A DNA stretch of 12,640 bases. It comes from a virus. Lineage: Duplodnaviria > Heunggongvirae > Uroviricota > Caudoviricetes. The stretch's first letter is position 1. Each line of letters opens with the position of its first letter. Where the stretch lies: positions 1 through 12,640 of the IMG/VR virus record IMGVR_UViG_2526164619_000008; one strand, given 5' to 3'. Under the pieces are notes generated by a model that saw nothing but the letters and a program-made list of their open reading frames with translations, had not been told where the DNA came from and did no database searches. This document shows, piece by piece, positions 332 through 12,640 of the stretch. A program made the position numbers and the translations under genes.

Positions 332-592
332 TTAATTCTGAGGTAAGGGCAAACTCATCTGATTGTTTCCTCTGTGTGAAGTTGGCAGTTCATGCCACGG
401 GATGCCCTCTGATGAGTGAATGGGGGAGGCGTGCTTTGAAGTGAATTTGTGGAAGGCTTCCAGTGTTGAGAAACATACGCCGCATTCTAGATTGTTACAC
501 TGATAATACTTTTGTCTCACGGTGTTTGAATCATTTTCCGGACGACTGGTGCGGATACGGGCAGATGCGCCACAAAGCGGACAACGGAACAT
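332..592 (-). CDS. ogr: Ogr/Delta-family zinc-finger late-gene transcription activator (86 aa, divergent)
   Basis: Translation begins MFRCPLCGASARIRTSRPE...YYQCNNLECG, matching the P2 Ogr N-terminus (recalled MFHCPLCQHAAHARTSR...YHQCQNVNCS) and its Cys-x2-Cys...Cys-x4-Cys arrangement. It sits downstream of gene D in the same orientation, as in P2, but with cargo in between. Confidence 0.7.
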   Translation of the reverse strand: MFRCPLCGASARIRTSRPENDSNTVRQKYYQCNNLECGVCFSTLEAFHKFTSKHASPIHSSEGIPWHELPTSHRGNNQMSLPLPQN

Positions 593-663: not shown

Positions 664-718
664 GGTAATGCTGCCAACTTACTGATTTAGTGTATGATGG
701 TGATTTTAAGGTGCTTGC

Positions 719-994
719 ATGGCTTCCATTTCCATCAGATGTCCTTCCTGCTCCGCTACTGAAGGCGTGGTGCGTAACGGCAAAAGCACTGCCGGACATC
801 AGCGCTATCTCTGCTCTCATTGCCGTAAAACATGGCAACTACAGTTCACTTACACCGCCTCTCAGCCCGGTACGCACCAGAAAATCATTGATATGGCCAT
901 GAATGGCGTCGGATGTCGCGCCAGTGCACGCATTATGGGCGTTGGCCTCAACACGGTTTTACGTCACTTAAAAAACTCAGGCCGCAGTCGGTAA
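719..994 (+). CDS. insA: IS1 InsA transposition regulator (91 aa)
   Basis: Translation [43 protein letters not shown]... is the recognisable InsA sequence. Confidence 0.95.
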
Positions 995-1416
995 CCTCGC
1001 GCATACAACCGGGCAGTGATGTGATTGTCTGCGCTGAAATGGACGAACAGTGGGGCTACGTCGGTGCTAAATCACGTCAGCGCTGGCTGTTTTACGCGTA
1101 TGACAGGATACGGAGGACGGTTGTGGCGCACGTCTTCGGTGAACGCACTCTGGCCACACTGGAGCGTCTTCTGAGCCTGCTGTCGGCCTTTGAGGTCGTG
1201 GTATGGATGACGGATGGCTGGCCGCTGTATGAATCACGCCTGAAGGGAAAGCTGCACGTTATCAGCAAGCGTTACACTCAGCGCATTGAGCGACATAATC
1301 TGAATCTGAGACAACATCTGGCAAGGCTGGGACGGAAGTCACTGTCGTTCTCAAAATCGGTGGAGCTGCATGACAAGGTCATCGGGCATTATCTGAACAT
1401 AAAACACTATCAGTAA
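913..1416 (+). CDS. insB: IS1 InsB reading frame, normally expressed as the InsAB' transposase by -1 frameshift at the A6C run 970..976
   Basis: Translation ...[26 protein letters not shown]...[38 protein letters not shown] is the recognisable InsB; AAAAAAC motif lies in the insA/insB overlap. Confidence 0.9.
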
Positions 1417-1431
1417 GTTGGAGTCATTATC

Positions 1432-1440
1432 GACTTTCTC
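1432..1440. repeat. 9-bp target-site duplication (GACTTTCTC), right copy, of the first IS1
   Basis: Exact repeat of 655..663. Confidence 0.85.
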
Positions 1441-1464
1441 TATATAATGATTTTTAGCATTAGT

Positions 1465-1496
1465 TAATAAACGAACGGCACTCTAAGGAGCGCCGT
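1465..1496 (-). terminator. Putative intrinsic terminator of the large cargo ORF
   Basis: On the minus strand, directly after the ORF stop: a 9-bp stem (ACGGCGCTC / GAGTGCCGT, one G-U pair) with a 4-nt loop, followed by TCGTTTATT. Folded by eye only. Confidence 0.45.
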
Positions 1497-1504
1497 CAAA
1501 GATA

Positions 1505-4336
1505 TTATTCTGATGTCACTCTTTGCGAGTGAGCTATTTTTAAATCAGCGTTTCCTTCAAATACTATATTCAACTCATAGTTAAGAGTTAGCTTGAATTT
1601 ATCTGAGTCACTTTTGATATTCTCTGAAGTGACATTTACTAACTTATTATTATCATATTCTCTAATAATTAATTTAGTGAAGTAGTTATCCTTTACCACT
1701 AGAGAAAATGGTTGATTAACAAATGGTAAGAAGTAAACCTTACAGGTACCGGATTCAGTAGTTATGTTCATAGAGCCATCATCATTTTTTCTCATTAGTT
1801 CTCTGAGGTTGGGATTATCGAAAAGCATACGATTATATTGCTGAAAGATCTCTTTACTCATCACAAGAACCAGTTTGCCAGCCAAGTCAGCAGATGATTT
1901 TATGTGATCAATCAACATATTGAAATCTTCTATTACGGTATGTTGCGAACAGCCAGTGCTAAATAAATTTGAAAGTATTATTCTCTGGATGTCCTTGAGA
2001 ATTAAGTCTGCTTGAATATCACCTTCATTGATATAAGGGATGGATTCTATTCCTTCGGCATACGGTTCTTTATCTATCTTAATAGATATCTTATGTTTTG
2101 TGAAACAATCGCTAGCCTGCTTAAAATCAATAGATTTGAAAAGTGAAAGAGGGAGTGTTTTCTTGATGCGTTTACGAAGATGTTCTGATGTTTTACGTGC
2201 AGTGCTATCTAGTCGATGTACATCTATGGCAGCATCCTGAAGTCTCATATCAAGATCTTTCTTTAGCATGTTAATATGCTCTTGAAGCAACTTTCTTAAG
2301 TTTTCTTTTTTTGTTTGGAGATCGTCCAATGTTAAAGTCAGCTTGATTTTAGTGTATTCGATGGAGTTACAAATTTTTGATAATACTCCAATGAGTCGTT
2401 GCTTCTCACGATATGTTATATAGTTTTTTTCTATTGCTTCTTTTATTTCTTTTGATACGCTATCGTTCTTGTTAGAAAAAATTAATAATAGCTGAACCCA
2501 TGATTGTTCCATATCAATAAATCCACAGTCAAAAACATTACTGTAAACTCTGCCCATCACCATGTCTGTTTTATCATAGTCACGTAAACGCCTTGCTAAA
2601 CTATTCATCCACCCATTGTGCTCCATATTTTCAGACCATGTCCACAGGCAGATTCTAATTAATATCTTGATTAGTTGGCTTGCATTATCAATTTCTTCAG
2701 TGGGAGTTTCATATCCACCGGTTTGGTCAATAAGTTTACCCTCTAAAATAAGTTTAATGTAATGTGTCATTAATTTGTCAGAAATATTGATTCTTGATGT
2801 CAGATAAAGACATGTGCATATACGCATGTCAGTCAACGCATTTATGATGGCAATATTGAACCACTCTCTGTCTGAATTGAAGTTTAGTTTTTTGGATATG
2901 AAAAAACCCGGGTTAAAAAGCTGGCCTTTGTAACTGTATTTTTCTACCGAATGGCTGTCAATATTCATTGAGTGCTGCCATCGGTTAATAAGAACGACGG
3001 CTGTATCAATAGTAGAAGGATCGCGAGTCTGTGTTGCATCAATAATCATCGATGGAAGTTCTTGTAGTTGCGTTTTGCAAAATAATTCAAATAAATCTGA
3101 ATTCTCTGTATTGCAGAAACGAAAGTTTATGCTTTCTTGATATTGCTCCCAAACAGTGGTATAGGTTCTTAATATACGATTATAACGTGAACGAAGCGAG
3201 GCATTTAAGAGTGATTGGTTGTTTCGGAACCATTCTGTTAATATTGACCATTGTGAACGAGTAATTCCCATATAGATACAAAGTTCATTGGTGATAAGAT
3301 GTTTTCTATTATTGATAATACGCACTCCGCTCCAAAGACATAATTCAAAAAATCTTTCAGAAAGATTAATTTTATCCATGGAATTATTTGATATTTTATA
3401 AACTTCATCTGAAAACTCATATTGAAAACTCCGTTCAAATAATTCTGTAGTGATCAGTAAGAAGTTATTGTTGGTATTATCATCTTGAAAAAAATACAAA
3501 TCGCAGAGATTATTAAAGTTATTAATTAATGCAGAGATAGCATTGTCAAAACTAATGAGATCAGAATCCCGCAGATACATATACGTATCTGCTGTTATAG
3601 CCTGCATTGTAAGACTTACGGAAAAATCTCCTCCTTTAATCGGAGCCCTATAAAAACATTGCTTAAGTATTTTTATTAATAAGCTGTCTGGTTTGATATT
3701 TTTAACGCTAAAAAGTATCTTACCCGTGGATTCTGTTTCTTTTGTACGATTATCACCAATGACAAATGACGCAAAATGATTCTTCTTTTTTAGTTGGTAA
3801 TTAATAAGATTAAGAGTAAGTTGAAAAGGACGGTGATATAAACTTAACTCATCTTCCTTAGAATAACTGCTAGCCACAGATATGTATTCTCCTTTGTAAC
3901 CGGCTTGCTTGATTTCTAAATTTGAATAGTTATGTTTTTGATAGATAGGGTATAACCTAAGCTTGGCTGAGATTTTGTTACAAATATGGGGCATTACTAT
4001 TTCGAAGGCAATGTATCGCTTTATAATTATTTGCCGTTTTACATCATCAAGAATTTCAAGACTCACGATAAAGAACCAAATAGAAAGAACTATGTTTATC
4101 AAAAGCCATAATATGCTGATTAGACAAGCTATACCATAAAGATAACTTCCAAAGACAGTTTTAATTAGTACACTGAGAAGTATAAATCCTGATAAGAAAA
4201 GCCCGCTGAGTCCAGCAAGCATGAATCCTGAGTAACGCTGATAAGCAGTTTGGGCTATTTTTCTATCTGCCTTTTTTTGGAATAAGACACTTACTAAACC
4301 TATAACAAGTGGGTATACAATACCAATAATTGTCAA
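1505..4336 (-). CDS. Large orphan protein (~943 aa) with a hydrophobic N-terminal region (about three predicted transmembrane helices) and a long Ile/Asn/Lys-rich soluble domain with coiled-coil-like stretches; function unknown
   Basis: Single uninterrupted ORF in a visibly AT-rich segment. The ORF-track start is TTG at 4336; the first in-frame ATG is at 4222 (codon 39), so the true start is uncertain. No Walker A or other catalytic motif recognised by eye. Confidence 0.7.
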   Translation of the reverse strand: MTIIGIVYPLVIGLVSVLFQKKADRKIAQTAYQRYSGFMLAGLSGLFLSGFILLSVLIKTVFGSYLYGIACLISILWLLINIVLSIWFFIVSLEILDDVKRQIIIKRYIAFEIVMPHICNKISAKLRLYPIYQKHNYSNLEIKQAGYKGEYISVASSYSKEDELSLYHRPFQLTLNLINYQLKKKNHFASFVIGDNRTKETESTGKILFSVKNIKPDSLLIKILKQCFYRAPIKGGDFSVSLTMQAITADTYMYLRDSDLISFDNAISALINNFNNLCDLYFFQDDNTNNNFLLITTELFERSFQYEFSDEVYKISNNSMDKINLSERFFELCLWSGVRIINNRKHLITNELCIYMGITRSQWSILTEWFRNNQSLLNASLRSRYNRILRTYTTVWEQYQESINFRFCNTENSDLFELFCKTQLQELPSMIIDATQTRDPSTIDTAVVLINRWQHSMNIDSHSVEKYSYKGQLFNPGFFISKKLNFNSDREWFNIAIINALTDMRICTCLYLTSRINISDKLMTHYIKLILEGKLIDQTGGYETPTEEIDNASQLIKILIRICLWTWSENMEHNGWMNSLARRLRDYDKTDMVMGRVYSNVFDCGFIDMEQSWVQLLLIFSNKNDSVSKEIKEAIEKNYITYREKQRLIGVLSKICNSIEYTKIKLTLTLDDLQTKKENLRKLLQEHINMLKKDLDMRLQDAAIDVHRLDSTARKTSEHLRKRIKKTLPLSLFKSIDFKQASDCFTKHKISIKIDKEPYAEGIESIPYINEGDIQADLILKDIQRIILSNLFSTGCSQHTVIEDFNMLIDHIKSSADLAGKLVLVMSKEIFQQYNRMLFDNPNLRELMRKNDDGSMNITTESGTCKVYFLPFVNQPFSLVVKDNYFTKLIIREYDNNKLVNVTSENIKSDSDKFKLTLNYELNIVFEGNADLKIAHSQRVTSE

Positions 4337-4871
4337 TTGGCCACTTAAAATGGTTGTTTGCCATTCGGTTAATGAATGCCTAAACGGGAAATAATGTAAA
4401 AGATTATTTTTTATAAATAATTCGTTTAAATATCCAACATAAAGTAGTACAAATGAAAAAGCTGATATGCAAAGTACTGATTTAACCGGTGAGGATGTTA
4501 ATCTTATGATGTTTTTTCAATAAAATTCCATTTTAAATTCGAATAAAATGGATTTTTAACCATTTTATTACGAACATAGTTCTTTGCTAAAATCTCTGTT
4601 GCACTTAAAAATTGTCCAATCATGAATTACTCTTCTATAAAGTGTGGGTCTACTAACTAAACTGGAATTTTTACTATTGAGTCATATTCCCTTGGACGGG
4701 ATGGACTGTGAAGATTATACTTGACTTCCTCTGTCATGTGGGAAAAACATCCGTATTATTGTTAGCATCTGGTTGATGCCCCAACCTCTGACATCTAGTG
4801 GGCTGATACATTATCTTTTGTTCTTACTGTCAGTGTAGAAGCACATCTCAAAAATAATATTTTTAAGAGAT
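4337..4871 (-). promoter_or_regulatory. AT-rich ~535-bp non-coding leader between the D stop and the cargo ORF; presumed promoter/regulatory region
   Basis: No ORF longer than ~26 codons on either strand; composition shifts abruptly at the gene D stop codon (4872). Confidence 0.35.
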
Positions 4872-5980
4872 TTATTCTATTTCTGCTATCCATTCCGGGA
4901 TTTTTGCTTCAAGTTCAAGCTGCGTGGTAAAGCCGCTGTTATCAATGGTGTGCTCGGCTTTTGCAATAATCCAGTCCTGATAATCAATCTCGCTTTTAAA
5001 GCCTGTCACTGTGCCATGCATTTCGGGATAGAGTTCTGCACGACCACGCGCCAGCGTGATGGAGAATGATGCGGCTCCGCGTTGTAGCTGCTGCCACTTT
5101 GCCGCCGCTGCGCGTCTTGCTGCCTGCTCGTTCTGATAAGTCTTGCGTAACACAAACACGTTGCCTTCCGCACCTTCCATATAGTCGCCTTCCCGACTGC
5201 TGCTTTTCTCCTTTTTGGGTTTTGGCGGTTTGCGGCGTTTCACGTTGACTTTTTTCTTTTCCCGTAATTAAGATCAAGCCAGTAGGCGCGTACCCCTGTA
5301 TACGCCTCGCGGTCAGCAATGCGGAACTGATGGCGATCGCCGCTGCTGCGTGTAATGGCGAACGAGGGCAACGGCTGCCCCTGTGCGTTCACGCCACCAC
5401 CTGGCATGATGAATAACAGATTGCCGCTTTTTACCGTGGCGATTGCTCCCAGCATTTCCGCCATGCGCGTAAGAAAGGACATGTCGCTTTCTTCGGTCTG
5501 GTCGGCGTGGTCGATTTCGATATCCATCAGCATTTCGCTGATTTGCGGTTTCAGGCCGTACCGATGAGCGATGGCGGATACCACACGCTCAACGGTCACA
5601 TCATGCCAGGACACCTCACGTTTAACGTTAAATTCATCCCGAAAATCTGCGCTTCTGGCTGAAACAGTCAGCCTGTCCGGCGGTCCTTCGTGAGCGATTT
5701 CATCAACAATGTAAGTGCCTTTTTCTGTCAGCGGTTCCCCTTTCCAGCCAATGAGAACCGTCAGACGCGCGCCCCGTGGCGGTAGCTGCAACTGACCATC
5801 CGCATCATCCAGCGTGATGGTGAGCTGGTCCGCCTCAAATCCCCGGTTGTCGGTCAGTGACAGGCACATCAGGCGCTCCGCCACGCCTGACAGCGTTTTA
5901 CCCTCCGAGAGAATATCAAAATCCGGCATTTTCACGGGGGCCGTGCCCTGACTGAGCAATTGCATGGTGGTGTCGGTCAT
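4872..5980 (-). pseudogene. D: P2-type tail protein D, interrupted by one frameshift in a homopolymer run (5250..5255)
   Basis: Two adjacent minus-strand ORFs (5240..6112 and 4872..5243) together match gpD (LTDNRGFEADQLTITLDDADGQLQLP..., SWHD, ITRSSGDRHQFRIADREAYTGV, REGDYMEGAEGNVFVL, GFTTQLELE). Adding one A to the AAAAAA run restores ...GKRKKVNVKRRKPPKPKKE.... Likely start is ATG at 5980 (MTDTTMQLL) with AGGGAGGGAG upstream. Confidence 0.85.
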
Positions 5981-6137
5981 CTGCTCCCTCCCTGTGCGGC
6001 ATGGTCGCATGTGCGTGCGGATGGGGTTACTGCTTTTTGTTGTCGCCGTGGCGGGAGAACGGCGCAGGGGTGAGATTGCGCGCGTGGTGGGTGATGATTG
6101 TTGCTGAATCATTTAACGGATACAAGGGGCTGAAGCT

Positions 6138-7322
6138 ATGAGTGAAACTCGTTTTCATGGTGCCCGTGTTACGGAGAATACCGACCTGGTAACAGCGATT
6201 AACGATGTTGATTCCAGCGTTATCGGTATCGTGGCAACGGCGGATGATGCGGACGCGAAGCTGTTCCCGCTGAACAAGCCCACACTGCTGACCCGCGTCA
6301 ATGACGTGCTGGGAAAATGCGGGACAACGGGGACGCTTTATCGTGCGCTTAAGGCCATCGCAGACCAGGTGAGCACAAAGGTGATCGTCGTTCGCGTGGC
6401 TGAACACAAAGAAGAAGACGGAAAGACGCAGGATCAACTGGTTATCGGTGGTTCTGAGGATGACGGCAGCTATACGGGGATGTATGCGCTGCTTGTTGCA
6501 GAGCAGGATGAAAGCATCGGATACCGTCCGCATATTCTGGCCGCGCCGGAGCTGGACACGGAGGCGGTAACAAAATCCCTGTGCGTGATTGCAGATAAAC
6601 TGCGCGCGTTTGTGTATGCCTCATGTCATGGCTGTAACACGATGGCCGAGGCAATTACCTACCGCCAGAAATTCAACGAACGTGAGGTGATGCTCTTATG
6701 GCCGGACTTCATCGCCTACAACCCGAAAAATGGCAAAAACGAAACGTTCCCCGCGCCTGCCTATGCGTGCGGCCTTCGTGCGTACATTGACCATGAACAG
6801 GGATGGCACAAATCGCTGTCCAACGTTCCGGTTAAAAATGTGCTGGGGATGTCGAGGCATGTGTTCTGGTCGTTGCAGGCCGAAGACAGCGATGCCAACA
6901 GCCTCAACAACAAAGAAATCACGACCATTATTCGTCGCAACGGGTTCCGCTTCTGGGGTAACCGCACACCGGAAACGAATGCCTACATCTTTGAGGTGTA
7001 TACCCGAACCGCACAGGTGCTGGCTGATTCAATTGCGGAAGCGCAGTTTGAAACCATCGACAGTCCACTGACGCCTGCGAATGTGAAGGATGTTATCAGT
7101 GCCATCAGGGCAAAACTGGATTCACTGGTGACTGCCGGGAAACTGATTGGCGCGGAGTGCTGGTATGACGTGGTGGATAACAGCACCACGGATTTACGTC
7201 AGGGACGTGTGCGTATTCGCTACAAATATACGCCCGTTCCGCCACTGGAAGACATGGAGCTTTACCAGACGTTTACTGATGAATACTTTGAACCCGCATT
7301 TGCGGTGCTGGGAGGTGCCTGA
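6138..7322 (+). CDS. FI: P2-type contractile tail sheath protein FI (394 aa)
   Basis: Translation contains DADAKLFPLNKPTLL, KLRAFVYAS, LLWPDF, EQGWHKSLSNV, RRNGFRFWGNRT, YTRTAQVLAD, YKYTPVPPLE, which match recalled P2 FI blocks; size matches (P2 FI ~396 aa); AAGGGG RBS. Confidence 0.9.
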   Translation: MSETRFHGARVTENTDLVTAINDVDSSVIGIVATADDADAKLFPLNKPTLLTRVNDVLGKCGTTGTLYRALKAIADQVSTKVIVVRVAEHKEEDGKTQDQLVIGGSEDDGSYTGMYALLVAEQDESIGYRPHILAAPELDTEAVTKSLCVIADKLRAFVYASCHGCNTMAEAITYRQKFNEREVMLLWPDFIAYNPKNGKNETFPAPAYACGLRAYIDHEQGWHKSLSNVPVKNVLGMSRHVFWSLQAEDSDANSLNNKEITTIIRRNGFRFWGNRTPETNAYIFEVYTRTAQVLADSIAEAQFETIDSPLTPANVKDVISAIRAKLDSLVTAGKLIGAECWYDVVDNSTTDLRQGRVRIRYKYTPVPPLEDMELYQTFTDEYFEPAFAVLGGA

Positions 7323-7819
7323 TGGCTGTGCCAAAACATCTTCGCTTTTTTACGCTGTTTGTGGATGGTGAAAACGAAGTGGGTAAGGTGACGTCCGTCA
7401 CTCTGCCTAAGCTGACGCGCAAAACCGACAGCTACCGGGGTGGTGGCATGATGGGTGCGGTAAGTATTGATCTCGGTCTGGACGACTCCGCGCTTGATGC
7501 GAGCTTTGTCATGGGGGGCGCAGTTCGTGAGCTGTTCCTTAAGTATGGCGGCACGATTGACGGCACGCTGCTGCGTTTTGCGGGTGAATACTACACCGAT
7601 GCAGAAAGCGACCTGTATGAAGTCGAAATGCGCGGACGTGTGACGGAAATTGATATGGGCGAAGCCACATCACACACTTACGCCATTAAAAACACCTACT
7701 ACAAGCTGAGTGTTAACGATCGCCCGTTGTGGGAGATTGACCTGCTGAACTTCATTTACCGGAAGGACGGCAAGGACATTGTGCCCGATCGCATCCGTTC
7801 CGCGCTTGGGCTTGGCTGA
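7322..7819 (+). CDS. FII: P2-type tail tube protein FII (165 aa)
   Basis: Start overlaps the FI stop (TGATG); GGAGGTG RBS; position and size match P2 FII. Confidence 0.85.
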   Translation: MAVPKHLRFFTLFVDGENEVGKVTSVTLPKLTRKTDSYRGGGMMGAVSIDLGLDDSALDASFVMGGAVRELFLKYGGTIDGTLLRFAGEYYTDAESDLYEVEMRGRVTEIDMGEATSHTYAIKNTYYKLSVNDRPLWEIDLLNFIYRKDGKDIVPDRIRSALGLG

Positions 7820-7874
7820 TAAGTAATATGCTGGCGGCGCAGTGCGTCGCCTCTGACTGAAAAGGAGACAACAG

Positions 7875-8249
7875 ATGAAAGACATCGATACTGAAACCCG
7901 GAATAACACCGTGGCGGATAATGTGACGGCAGTTGAGGATATGGCTGTCGAACGTGGCGTAAAACTGACCCGACCAATTGAGCGTGGTGGCGAAAAAATC
8001 ACGTATGTGGAGATCACCGGGGCTATTGAGCAGGCTGGATCCCTGCGTGGTCTGTCGCTGTCTGATGCGCTGAATCTGAAAGCGGATACCATGTTCACGC
8101 TGTTGCCTCGCGTGACCTCGCCACGACTGGATGAAGTGATGATTAAAAAAATGTCGTCACGCGATTTTATTCAGTTGTGCGCTGTGGCTGTAAATTTTAT
8201 GAGCGAGCCAGACTCTGGCGCGAAGAGCGTGCAGGAGACGGCAGCGTAA
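7875..8249 (+). CDS. E: Tail assembly chaperone E-like protein (124 aa)
   Basis: Called by synteny (directly after FII), AAAGGAG RBS 7 nt upstream of the ATG, and an overlapping -1 frame ORF as in the P2 E/E' pair. Not confirmed by sequence identity. Confidence 0.65.
   Translation: MKDIDTETRNNTVADNVTAVEDMAVERGVKLTRPIERGGEKITYVEITGAIEQAGSLRGLSLSDALNLKADTMFTLLPRVTSPRLDEVMIKKMSSRDFIQLCAVAVNFMSEPDSGAKSVQETAA
8192..8198 (+). other. Candidate -1 programmed frameshift heptamer A_AAT_TTT joining E to E'
   Basis: Zero-frame codons AAT TTT preceded by A give an X_XXY_YYZ heptamer inside the 8177..8249 overlap of the E frame and the -1 frame. Confidence 0.4.
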
Positions 8250-8389
8250 TCACCCTGGTGTGCTTTGAGCACATCGAAGATCTGGTGGCGGATATTGCCG
8301 CCATTTTTAACTGGTCGCCCGCCGAAATCTTCATGATGACGCCCGGCGAAGTGGTTAGCTGGCGTGAGCGGGCGGCACTTCGTAGCGGG
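8198..8389 (+). pseudogene. E' extension reading frame (-1 relative to E), 3' end cut by IS1
   Basis: The -1 frame stays open from 8177 and runs into IS1 with no native stop (...EVVSWRERAALRSGG then IS1-encoded NAANLLI*). Confidence 0.55.
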
Positions 8390-8444
8390 GGTAATGCTGC
8401 CAACTTACTGATTTAGTGTATGATGGTGATTTTAAGGTGCTTGC

Positions 8445-8720
8445 GTGGCTTCCATTTCCATCAGATGTCCTTCCTGCACCGCTACTGAAGGCGTGGTGCG
8501 TAACGGCAAAAGCACTGCCGGACATCAGCGCTATCTCTGCTCTCATTGCCGTAAAACATGGCAACTACAGTTCACTTACACCGCCTCTCAGCCCGGTACG
8601 CACCAGAAAATCATTGATATGGCCATGAATGGCGTCGGATGTCGCGCCAGTGCACGCATTATGGGCGTTGGCCTCAACACGGTTTTACGTCACTTAAAAA
8701 ACTCAGGCCGCAGTCGGTAA
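8445..8720 (+). CDS. insA: IS1 InsA (91 aa; GTG start in this copy)
   Basis: Same protein as 719..994 with one substitution (S12T); start codon GTG here versus ATG in the first copy. Confidence 0.95.
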
Positions 8721-9142
8721 CCTCGCGCATACAACCGGGCAGTGATGTGATTGTCTGCGCTGAAATGGACGAACAGTGGGGCTACGTCGGTGCTAAATCA
8801 CATCAGCGCTGGCTGTTTTACGCGTATGACAGGATACGGAGGACGGTTGTGGCGCACGTCTTCGGTGAACGCACTCTGGCCACACTGGAGCGTCTTCTGA
8901 GCCTGCTGTCGGCCTTTGAGGTCGTGGTATGGATGACGGATGGCTGGCCGCTGTATGAATCACGCCTGAAGGGAAAGCTGCACGTTATCAGCAAGCGTTA
9001 CACTCAGCGCATTGAGCGACATAATCTGAATCTGAGACAACATCTGGCAAGGCTGGGACGGAAGTCACTGTCGTTCTCAAAATCGGTGGAGCTGCATGAC
9101 AAGGTCATCGGGCATTATCTGAACATAAAACACTATCAGTAA
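8639..9142 (+). CDS. insB: IS1 InsB reading frame (InsAB' via -1 frameshift at A6C 8696..8702)
   Basis: Same as 913..1416 with one substitution (R55H). Confidence 0.9.
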
Positions 9143-9157
9143 GTTGGAGTCATTACC

Positions 9158-10353
9158 GAGTCGCGCATGGTGGCCCCGTTCCATTTGGGGTTCGGATGAC
9201 CGTTCTCCGTTGTTGCGTGGTATTTTGACGGGCAGTTGACAGTCAGAAACACCGCTTTGTCACCACGGGCTTCGGCCAGAGGTTCCAGCCCCTTCATGGT
9301 GGCCATCATTTCTGCCTTACGGTGAACCGGGTTACTTACTCCCGCGTAATACACTGTCTCGAGATCAATCGTGAACCCGTCTTCATTTTCCAGCATGAAA
9401 CTTTTCAGGAAATCGCGTGTTTTCTCGCGCTGTGCGCGAAACTCGCTTAACGCGTCCTGGCTCAGATAGGGCGATGTTTTTCTGAAAACCAGACAGGCGG
9501 CGCGGAGTTGTTCTTCTCTCCACTCGCAACGTAACAGCCACAGTTTGCGTTTCCACCATTCTGCACAGGTCAGGCGAAGGATTGCGCCCGGCAGCAGCTC
9601 CGTGTCCGGTTCGTTCCTCCGGTCTTTGTCTGTTGTCAGTGCGTCATAATGTGGAGGCATGGCGTGCAGGTGTAACGCCATGCGGGCCAGCATCTGATAC
9701 GCCTTCAGCGTTACATCCATGGTCAGTTCGCCATCGGTCGCGCCAAAGCCATCGCAGAGTTTTTCGAAGGTGCTGCTGAACATCGCTGCCGTCATGGTGG
9801 CCAGTGTCTGTATCTGGTGTTTGTTGAGCTGCGGCAGGTAAAGCAAATCGTCCAGGCGTTCGCGTCCGGCAAGGGAGCGATAACCCTGTGTCAGCCAGCG
9901 GTGATCGGTGCGCTCCAGACGTTCGAATATTTTGCGCAGGTTTCCGCGCGCGTAGCGTTCAGCCTGCCAGCTCTTTTTGCCTTTCTGACGATCGGCTTCC
10001 TGTTTTTTGCGCAGGAAGGAGAGGTGGCGAATAAGCGGATCGCGCAGATAGGACGGCAGCAGGCGCAGCGAGGCCATGGCTTCATCCACCGCGCCGCGTG
10101 CCTGTTTTCTGGCATCTCCTGCCAGTGTGATGGTTTTGTCCTGTTTTTCCTGTGCGTCCAGGCTTTTATTAATCAGGTTGCCCAGCGGCGTTGCGGAGAA
10201 CGCCGCATCAGCCATTTCCTGGCGGCGCTCGTTCTCTACCCGGTAGGCATCCAGCCAGGAGGAAAGCGCGGATTCAGGAGCGGGGATCCCCGTTCCTTCA
10301 CGCCCCACTGCGTGGCGCGGTTGTTGCCAGTCCCTGATGTACTCTGCCGTCAT
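9158..10353 (-). pseudogene. A: P2-type replication initiation protein A, N-terminal ~398 codons only; 3' part replaced by IS1
   Basis: Translation has HAVGREGTG and FLTVNCPSKYHATT blocks resembling recalled P2/186 A-protein motifs; the ORF runs from ATG 10353 into the IS1 right end, whose sequence supplies the last 7 codons and stop. P2 A is ~761 aa, so the catalytic C-terminal half is missing. Confidence 0.7.

Positions 10354-12266: not shown

Positions 12267-12640
<374 letters not shown>

Follow-up and report, generated by a model that had tools for sequence, protein, structure and literature searches.

The DNA analysed here, a stretch of 12,640 nucleotides from the virus record IMGVR_UViG_2526164619_000008 (Caudoviricetes; hereafter the window), belongs to a P2-like prophage and carries an AT-rich cargo gene between the tail gene D and ogr. 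We find that this gene is a frameshifted copy of one encoding a 1,039-aa protein whose family and architecture appear undescribed in the libraries searched (PADLOC, 2023 edition; Pfam, 2025; NCBIfam, 2026) and in the full-text literature. The full-length protein combines a strongly conserved N-terminal module of four transmembrane (TM) helices with a divergent C-terminal domain predicted to adopt the HK97 capsid fold. A defence role of some kind is probable for the family, and the intact gene may encode a single-polypeptide anti-phage protein of the abortive-infection type. The interest of the locus rests on the family it revealed rather than on the pseudogene copy in the window.

An original prediction from the window alone had described the cargo as an intact, membrane-anchored orphan protein of 943 aa, retained under selection in a degraded prophage and perhaps an anti-phage effector. 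The 943-aa open reading frame (ORF) is present, starts with TTG, and is followed by a terminator-like hairpin of its own as predicted, but it is only part of an interrupted gene, with the following features.

1505 to 4623, minus strand: frameshifted copy of the 1,039-aa family gene, with its ATG at 4623-4621 and stop codon at 1507-1505, colinear with the 3,120-bp coding sequence (CDS) of WP_264716223.1 and WP_049143931.1 save for one missing base.
4512 to 4517, minus strand: frameshift site, A6 on the coding strand as opposed to A7 in nine related copies.
1505 to 4336, minus strand: 943-aa ORF, which corresponds to residues 97-1039 of the complete protein and opens within TM helix 2 at an internal TTG (Leu97).
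4624 to 4871, minus strand: 5' leader of the cargo gene, with a ribosome-binding-site-like AGAAGAG before the ATG and a promoter-like site at 4839-4810 that is a weak consensus match only.
1474 to 1497, minus strand: terminator-like hairpin directly after the stop codon.

Base-by-base comparison with two complete E. coli genomes identified a single indel, the window having A6 and both relatives A7, and the CDS is 3,120 bp (1,039 aa) in both of the annotated E. coli regions fetched. In the window, the frame from the ATG at 4623 terminates at 4504 after 39 codons, and the first start codon in the downstream frame is the TTG at 4336, in the middle of TM helix 2. A7 was found in all nine related copies (the two complete genomes and seven IMG/VR contigs with the same cargo), eight of which, including six of the seven contigs, read through to 1,039 aa; the remaining copy, on IMG/VR contig L047, has A7 and an independent premature stop at codon 315. 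On these comparisons, the frameshift in the window allele is either derived or the product of a sequencing error in the homopolymer. The A6/A7 change lies 37 codons into the gene and, sequencing error aside, might act as a phase-variation-like switch or simply inactivate the gene. Were the A-run read with a -1 slip, the exact wild-type reading (IEKNII...) would be regained, although at most a trace of full-length product would result. Read as it stands, the -1 frameshift would inactivate the window copy, making the locus a pseudogene in a decayed prophage, and this copy therefore carries less biological weight.

The frameshift also removes the ground for the argument that an intact ORF in a degraded prophage reflects retention under selection, since the window copy has suffered a frameshift just as its neighbours have. 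Only at the level of the family and among intact close copies can selection be seen, dN/dS (the ratio of nonsynonymous to synonymous substitution rates) being 0.32-0.38 among the close copies on only 9-34 substitutions. Together, the premature stop in L047 and the many fragments in the Shigella sequence cluster described below suggest repeated inactivation of the cargo gene in Shigella-type genomes.

The protein is not an orphan. A word-indexed search returned 183 homologues in two groups, a close clade with 50-99% identity in Shigella, E. coli, Erwinia, and Pantoea, and a clade of proteins of ~1,069 aa with 26-29% identity in many Enterobacterales; none of the 120 homologues listed has a Pfam domain on record. 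The 90% identity cluster around the window protein holds 692 member sequences, many of them fragments, mostly from Shigella boydii, S. sonnei, S. dysenteriae, and S. flexneri as well as E. coli. An exhaustive profile search extended the family to 500 representative clusters (50% identity) at E <= 1e-3, 149 of them at E <= 1e-30; most of the representative-cluster members listed are 1,030-1,150 aa long and align with the profile over its whole length, whereas shorter members match it only in part. By tblastn the family is present on 377 of 72,556 plasmids, where every listed record but one is labelled 'hypothetical protein'; the 50,697 deposited phage genomes searched gave no match. When one genome per species was scanned with two patterns, 14 genera proved positive: Phytobacter, Erwinia, Citrobacter, Pseudoalteromonas, Bermanella, Aliikangiella, Shewanella, Alteromonas, Psychrobacter, Enterovibrio, Vibrio, Acinetobacter, Kangiella, and Desulforhopalus. 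Among complete E. coli genomes the cargo occurs in only 5 of 5,426, each time in a P2-like prophage that is integrated beside ihfA and has the cargo between D and ogr.

The original prediction could not assign the soluble part to any family, and this has held up against profile libraries. The 943-aa ORF had no match in Pfam or NCBIfam at E <= 1 and none among the 5,027 models of PADLOC-DB v2.0.0 at the same threshold. PADLOC likewise returned nothing for eight diverse full-length members at E <= 0.01, which excludes the known defence families that it models as homologues. Pfam gave no meaningful match for eight distant members, PHROGs no match of note for four, and sequence-profile searches of the PDB (queries A1 and A2) nothing at E <= 10. 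Full-text literature searches with accessions, with the HK97 fold combined with defence or membrane, and with capsid mimics or decoys returned no description of the family or its architecture, and the main text of DefensePredictor contains no system matching it.

Several names in the databases were considered and rejected. The label of major facilitator superfamily transporter, given to WP_264716223.1 and its relatives by NCBI's Prokaryotic Genome Annotation Pipeline, is at odds with a protein that has four TM helices, not the 12 in two six-helix bundles typical of that superfamily, and matches neither Pfam nor NCBIfam. The same four helices and a lack of profile support speak against the 'O-antigen polymerase domain' of a plasmid annotation and the 'nicotinate-nucleotide adenylyltransferase' of a UniRef cluster name. 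AbjA of strain CFT073 (c0293), reportedly a newly described abortive-conjugation factor without domain annotation, was set apart by size and locus only, the integrase-adjoining genes there encoding ~245-270 aa with no gene of ~3.1 kb among them.

The architecture of the full-length protein was predicted with AlphaFold2 from a 42-sequence alignment (predicted local distance difference test score 81.7, predicted template modelling score 0.67). In the model, a short N-terminal helical segment is followed by four TM helices, a long stalk helix, an alpha/beta region (233-400), a long alpha-helical solenoid (~401-730), two long helices, and a C-terminal alpha/beta domain (~829-1035). In window coordinates, the main parts are as follows.

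4055 to 4489, minus strand: four-TM module, residues ~46-190, from hydropathy and the AlphaFold2 helices 46-66, 85-115, 134-158, and 160-190, with an invariant block from Q96 to F185.
2435 to 3928, minus strand: predicted cytoplasmic alpha/beta region (residues 233-400) and alpha-helical solenoid (401-730).
1520 to 2140, minus strand: C-terminal domain with a predicted HK97-like (capsid) fold, residues ~829-1035, the most divergent region of the family.

The only hydrophobic helices are the four in residues 46-190. The approximately three N-terminal TM helices of the original prediction are therefore the four-TM module seen in truncation, as the 943-aa ORF starts within the second helix. Counts of lysine plus arginine in successive loops (7, 2, 5, 0, 8) correspond to an N-in, C-in topology, and the N-terminus and the whole soluble part are accordingly predicted by the positive-inside rule to be cytoplasmic.

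Structure comparison placed the C-terminal domain in the HK97-fold class, which is characterized by a spine helix, a P-domain sheet, an A-domain, and an E-loop-like hairpin. This domain is the most informative feature of the protein, and one that lay beyond what the original prediction could see. Its matches include the encapsulins of T. maritima and S. griseus and the P. furiosus virus-like particle, the phage capsid proteins T4 gp24, lambda gpE, and HK97 gp5, the SaPIbov5 protein Ccm and head proteins associated with phage-inducible chromosomal islands (PICI) and PICI-like elements (PLE), the capsid protein of a gene transfer agent (GTA), and herpesvirus floor domains. The order of elements (a hairpin, a 21-residue helix, an alpha/beta core, and long C-terminal strands) agrees with the HK97 fold. 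Profiles from Pfam, PHROGs, and the PDB revealed no sequence-level homology of the family to Phage_capsid, Linocin_M18, or other capsid or encapsulin families, and the HK97 assignment is a prediction at the level of fold, without sequence-level support. It is conceivable that the likeness is a prediction artefact or a convergent alpha/beta topology, in which case the protein would be a membrane-anchored helical scaffold and the window copy a decaying pseudogene in a dead prophage; we consider this reading improbable. If the domain does have a capsid fold, formation of a closed shell is unlikely, as it is fused to a four-TM anchor and a 600-residue helical region.

Conservation is distributed unevenly along the protein. 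Between clades that are otherwise 13-26% identical, the four-TM module is 51-56% identical, and in it invariant polar and small residues form an almost unbroken block that includes Q96, T98, Y104, P105, S112, Q116, K118, Q129, S132-G133, G138-G141, N177, S181, and W183-F185. The solenoid has invariant residues as well (D544, R548, W549, N595, D599, and R601). The HK97-like domain, by comparison, is only 13-21% identical between clades. Such a pattern is what one would expect if a conserved effector were coupled to a sensor that diversifies. It also bears on the possibility that the protein is a membrane-tethered capsid decoy or assembly poison, conceptually akin to the satellite proteins that remodel capsids, whose HK97-like domain would co-assemble with phage capsid subunits and sequester or derail procapsids without abortive infection, the TM helices serving mainly as an anchor. 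The resemblance of the fold to capsid proteins (including the capsid-morphogenesis protein Ccm and the PLE and PICI head proteins), the predicted cytoplasmic location of the soluble part, and carriage by P2-like prophages and a P4-like satellite are all consistent with a decoy. However, a passive anchor would not be expected to be the best-conserved part of the protein or to retain so many invariant polar residues, and the family is common on plasmids and chromosomal islands that have no capsid genes of their own. We therefore regard a decoy as unlikely.

The family gene stands alone in every context inspected, with different neighbours in each, which rules out a conserved partner gene. The copy on a P4-like satellite lies with a primase gene, Ash, DUF3800, and FRG genes, those on IncF plasmids of the ColBM/ColV type beside genes for an AAA_15/21 ATPase and a RES protein, and another plasmid copy with DUF3800, VapBC, a YobI-ATPase, and an OLD-TOPRIM protein. 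In Serratia, the gene occupies an island between phn and nrdD together with DUF3800, HNH, and TIR genes; it accompanies a KAP NTPase and SIR2 in Pectobacterium and PLD and PIN genes on a Pantoea plasmid, and a TIR protein flanks the Erwinia copy. In Aliikangiella and Kangiella, as well as on a 57-kb IMG/VR contig, the gene is embedded in a type I restriction-modification (R-M) operon in the order hsdM-hsdS-[family]-hsdR, the genes abutting or overlapping. A type III-A retron lies just upstream of this locus in Aliikangiella, and an AAA_5 (McrB-like) ATPase gene follows the family gene in Kangiella. The embedded copies, on marine-bacterial or viral contigs, are located as follows.

L029, 7001 to 16449: type I R-M operon with embedded family gene.
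L036, 6985 to 16460: the same arrangement.
L048, 4890 to 14529: the same arrangement.

Among 80 further neighbours pooled from 12 diverse genomes, PADLOC recognized a retron reverse transcriptase with a phosphoribosyltransferase (PRTase), a cyclase and 4TM effector of a cyclic-oligonucleotide-based antiphage signalling system (CBASS), and UzuA of the Uzume system. Some neighbourhoods consist of plain housekeeping genes, and two very distant metagenomic members lie on contigs of only 3.6-3.9 kb. Across the neighbourhoods listed, co-location with known systems thus recurs in unrelated genomes, as in defence islands. On the IncF plasmids (L003-L007, 6944-9612), we also observed that the family gene is adjoined, on the strand opposite to its own, by a 518-aa AAA_15/AAA_21 ATPase gene and two small unannotated ORFs (196 and 81-85 aa), with a gene for a RES-domain protein downstream; this group could represent an additional defence or toxin module carried by plasmids of the ColBM/ColV type.

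These contexts also bear on whether the protein acts against phages at all. The capsid-fold domain might instead be a pentamer- or hexamer-forming oligomerization head of a channel or of an envelope protein whose benefit to mobile elements is of another kind, for example blocking DNA entry or conjugation, ion or solute flux, or plasmid competition. A role of this kind would be in keeping with the capsomers that HK97-fold proteins form by nature, with a TM module that is so well conserved, with how often the family occurs on conjugative IncF plasmids, and with the transporter labels in the databases. The transporter labels are unsupported, however, for the reasons given above, and a supposed structural head that evolves fastest fits an arms-race sensor better than a scaffold. 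In addition, embedding between hsdS and hsdR and the adjacency of retron, TIR, and CBASS genes point to immunity, and we give a non-antiviral function little credence.

We favour an abortive-infection type of anti-phage protein as the product of the intact gene, while recognizing that this is tentative. The suggestion of an anti-phage effector in the original prediction is borne out to the extent that relatives lie among defence genes, although the abortive-infection function itself is something that we infer. In the mechanism proposed, the cytoplasmic, rapidly diversifying HK97-fold domain would be the sensor and would engage a component of phage head assembly (the major capsid protein, scaffold, protease, or portal) through capsomer-like contacts. 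The alpha-solenoid and stalk helix would couple sensing to the membrane, where the conserved N-terminal four-TM module would oligomerize or open, compromising the inner membrane and stopping phage production. That the HK97 fold has been domesticated in this manner, as the cytoplasmic sensor head of a membrane immune protein that senses phage head proteins, or co-assembles with them, through capsomer-type contacts and thereby triggers membrane permeabilization, is a more speculative proposition than the anti-phage role, possible but somewhat doubtful.

If this mechanism is true, the family would constitute a new class of single-protein defence carried by P2 prophages, P4 satellites, and IncF plasmids and within type I R-M operons. 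It would also represent a new sensing principle in bacterial immunity, in which the capsid fold of the virus itself is borne by a protein of the host or of a mobile element. To our knowledge, the HK97 fold has so far been known only from the shells of viruses, satellites, GTAs, and encapsulins, and this would, as far as we could find, be its first use outside a shell. Since the family is not rare, with 377 sequenced plasmids carrying it, a large share of which are clinical IncF plasmids, and with further copies in P2 and P4 elements of Escherichia and Shigella, such a function would be relevant to phage-therapy host range and to the ecology of plasmids and prophages.

The D-ogr interval proved to be a variable cargo site, a possibility that the original prediction had raised. 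Of 1,202 E. coli genomes with the junction, 720 have D and ogr side by side, as shown by contiguous matches to a synthetic empty junction, and sister prophages carry other genes at this position.

L018, 5269 to 6771: 500-aa PIN-domain protein WP_001035742.1.
L019, 5616 to 6763: ComF-like PRTase, a weak PsyrT-like match, and a 185-aa protein.
L020, 6141 to 6806: 221-aa hypothetical protein.

Because no PADLOC model matched the D-ogr cargo genes examined apart from the weak PsyrT-like match, these genes are unexplored candidates for defence. The locus has the features of prophage cargo (morons) at a variable P2-like hotspot, namely core-gene flanks, varying content, a drop in GC content, and a terminator-like hairpin of its own, and the D-ogr junction of this one P2-like lineage can be viewed as a cargo slot and a small reservoir of candidates.

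In the window itself, GC content is 0.30-0.37 over ~1400-4800 compared to 0.47-0.57 in both flanks, and the change falls at the D stop codon (4872), in agreement with the composition shift originally described. The slot and its surroundings are laid out as follows.

1432 to 4871, no strand assigned: AT-rich cargo segment with the GC drop, from the IS1 end on the ogr side to the D stop codon.
332 to 592, minus strand: ogr, left boundary gene of the cargo slot (Pfam Ogr_Delta, E = 5e-14).
4872 to 6112, minus strand: tail gene D, right boundary gene, split into two ORFs that both match Pfam Phage_GPD.
6138 to 7819, plus strand: FI and FII.
9136 to 10353, minus strand: replication gene A, truncated.
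664 to 1431, plus strand: first IS1, between ogr and the cargo, with a 9-bp target-site duplication, GACTTTCTC, at 655-663 and 1432-1440.
8390 to 9157: second IS1, which replaces everything from T to the truncated A.

The prophage is degraded, as had been noted originally. Colinearity with intact relatives extends over 1-663 and 1432-8389, and the 9-bp target duplication identifies the first IS1 as a simple insertion. At the second IS1, T, U, and all that follows as far as A are missing, and this element is placed exactly at the jump from E' to the truncated A, two points that lie ~27 kb apart in an intact relative, which suggests that an IS1-mediated deletion removed the interval between them. 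The two IS1 copies are in direct orientation and 99.5% identical.

Several further observations concern the prophage lineage. Of the five E. coli relatives with fetched annotation, four (L001, L018, L019, and L020) have D recorded in RefSeq as a short CDS of 801 bp together with a partial pseudogene, an intact 1,110-bp D being found only in L002, and the D defect may be widespread in this lineage, not strain-specific. The tail block FI-FII-E-E'-T-U (6138-8389 in the window, 16709-22294 in L001 and L002) is on the strand opposite to D and ogr in all five relatives inspected as well; in canonical P2, FI, FII, E, E', T, U, D, and ogr are all co-oriented. A hok/gef-family toxin gene at 1-141, at the prophage end beside ogr, is conserved in all relatives, and the match to the P2 early region stops at ~12267, with 12268-12640 lying beyond it.

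Among known systems, PifA of the F plasmid, which excludes phage T7, is a single large membrane-associated abortive-infection protein whose triggers include the major capsid protein and which causes membrane leakage. The family resembles it as a large single membrane protein that is likewise common on IncF plasmids, where WP_013362823.1 is one of its alleles, but differs in that neither the eight full-length members nor the window ORF matched PADLOC, which presumably includes a PifA model, and we know of no capsid-fold domain or conserved four-TM module in PifA. CapRel-SJ46 and Lit/Gol share the proposed logic of a fast-evolving sensor that recognizes a phage head protein and is fused to, or controls, a toxic effector; those are soluble enzymes (a tRNA pyrophosphokinase and a protease of elongation factor Tu) with sensors that are not capsid-fold, whereas the presumed effector of the family is a membrane module. 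Encapsulins, GTA capsids, SaPI Ccm, and PICI and PLE head proteins share the fold class and are the best structural matches of the C-terminal domain, yet they build closed soluble shells, are fused to neither a four-TM module nor an alpha-solenoid, and have no sequence-level similarity to it. PrrC of EcoprrI is comparable in position, as a stand-alone defence gene inside a type I hsd operon like the copies in L029, L036, and L048, although it is a soluble ABC-ATPase-like anticodon nuclease of different architecture and without homology. Finally, KwaA of Kiwa and the S_4TM effectors of CBASS offer a parallel for a four-helix membrane module that is compact, conserved, and set in a defence context, where it presumably disrupts or senses the membrane. 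In contrast to these, the family gene is solo, with no KwaB or cyclase partner, and the family matched neither PADLOC, which we take to contain KwaA models, nor Pfam, including S_4TM (PF18159). PifA, CapRel, Lit, PrrC, KwaA, and S_4TM, none of them a homologue, can by analogy be considered the closest functional counterparts of the family.

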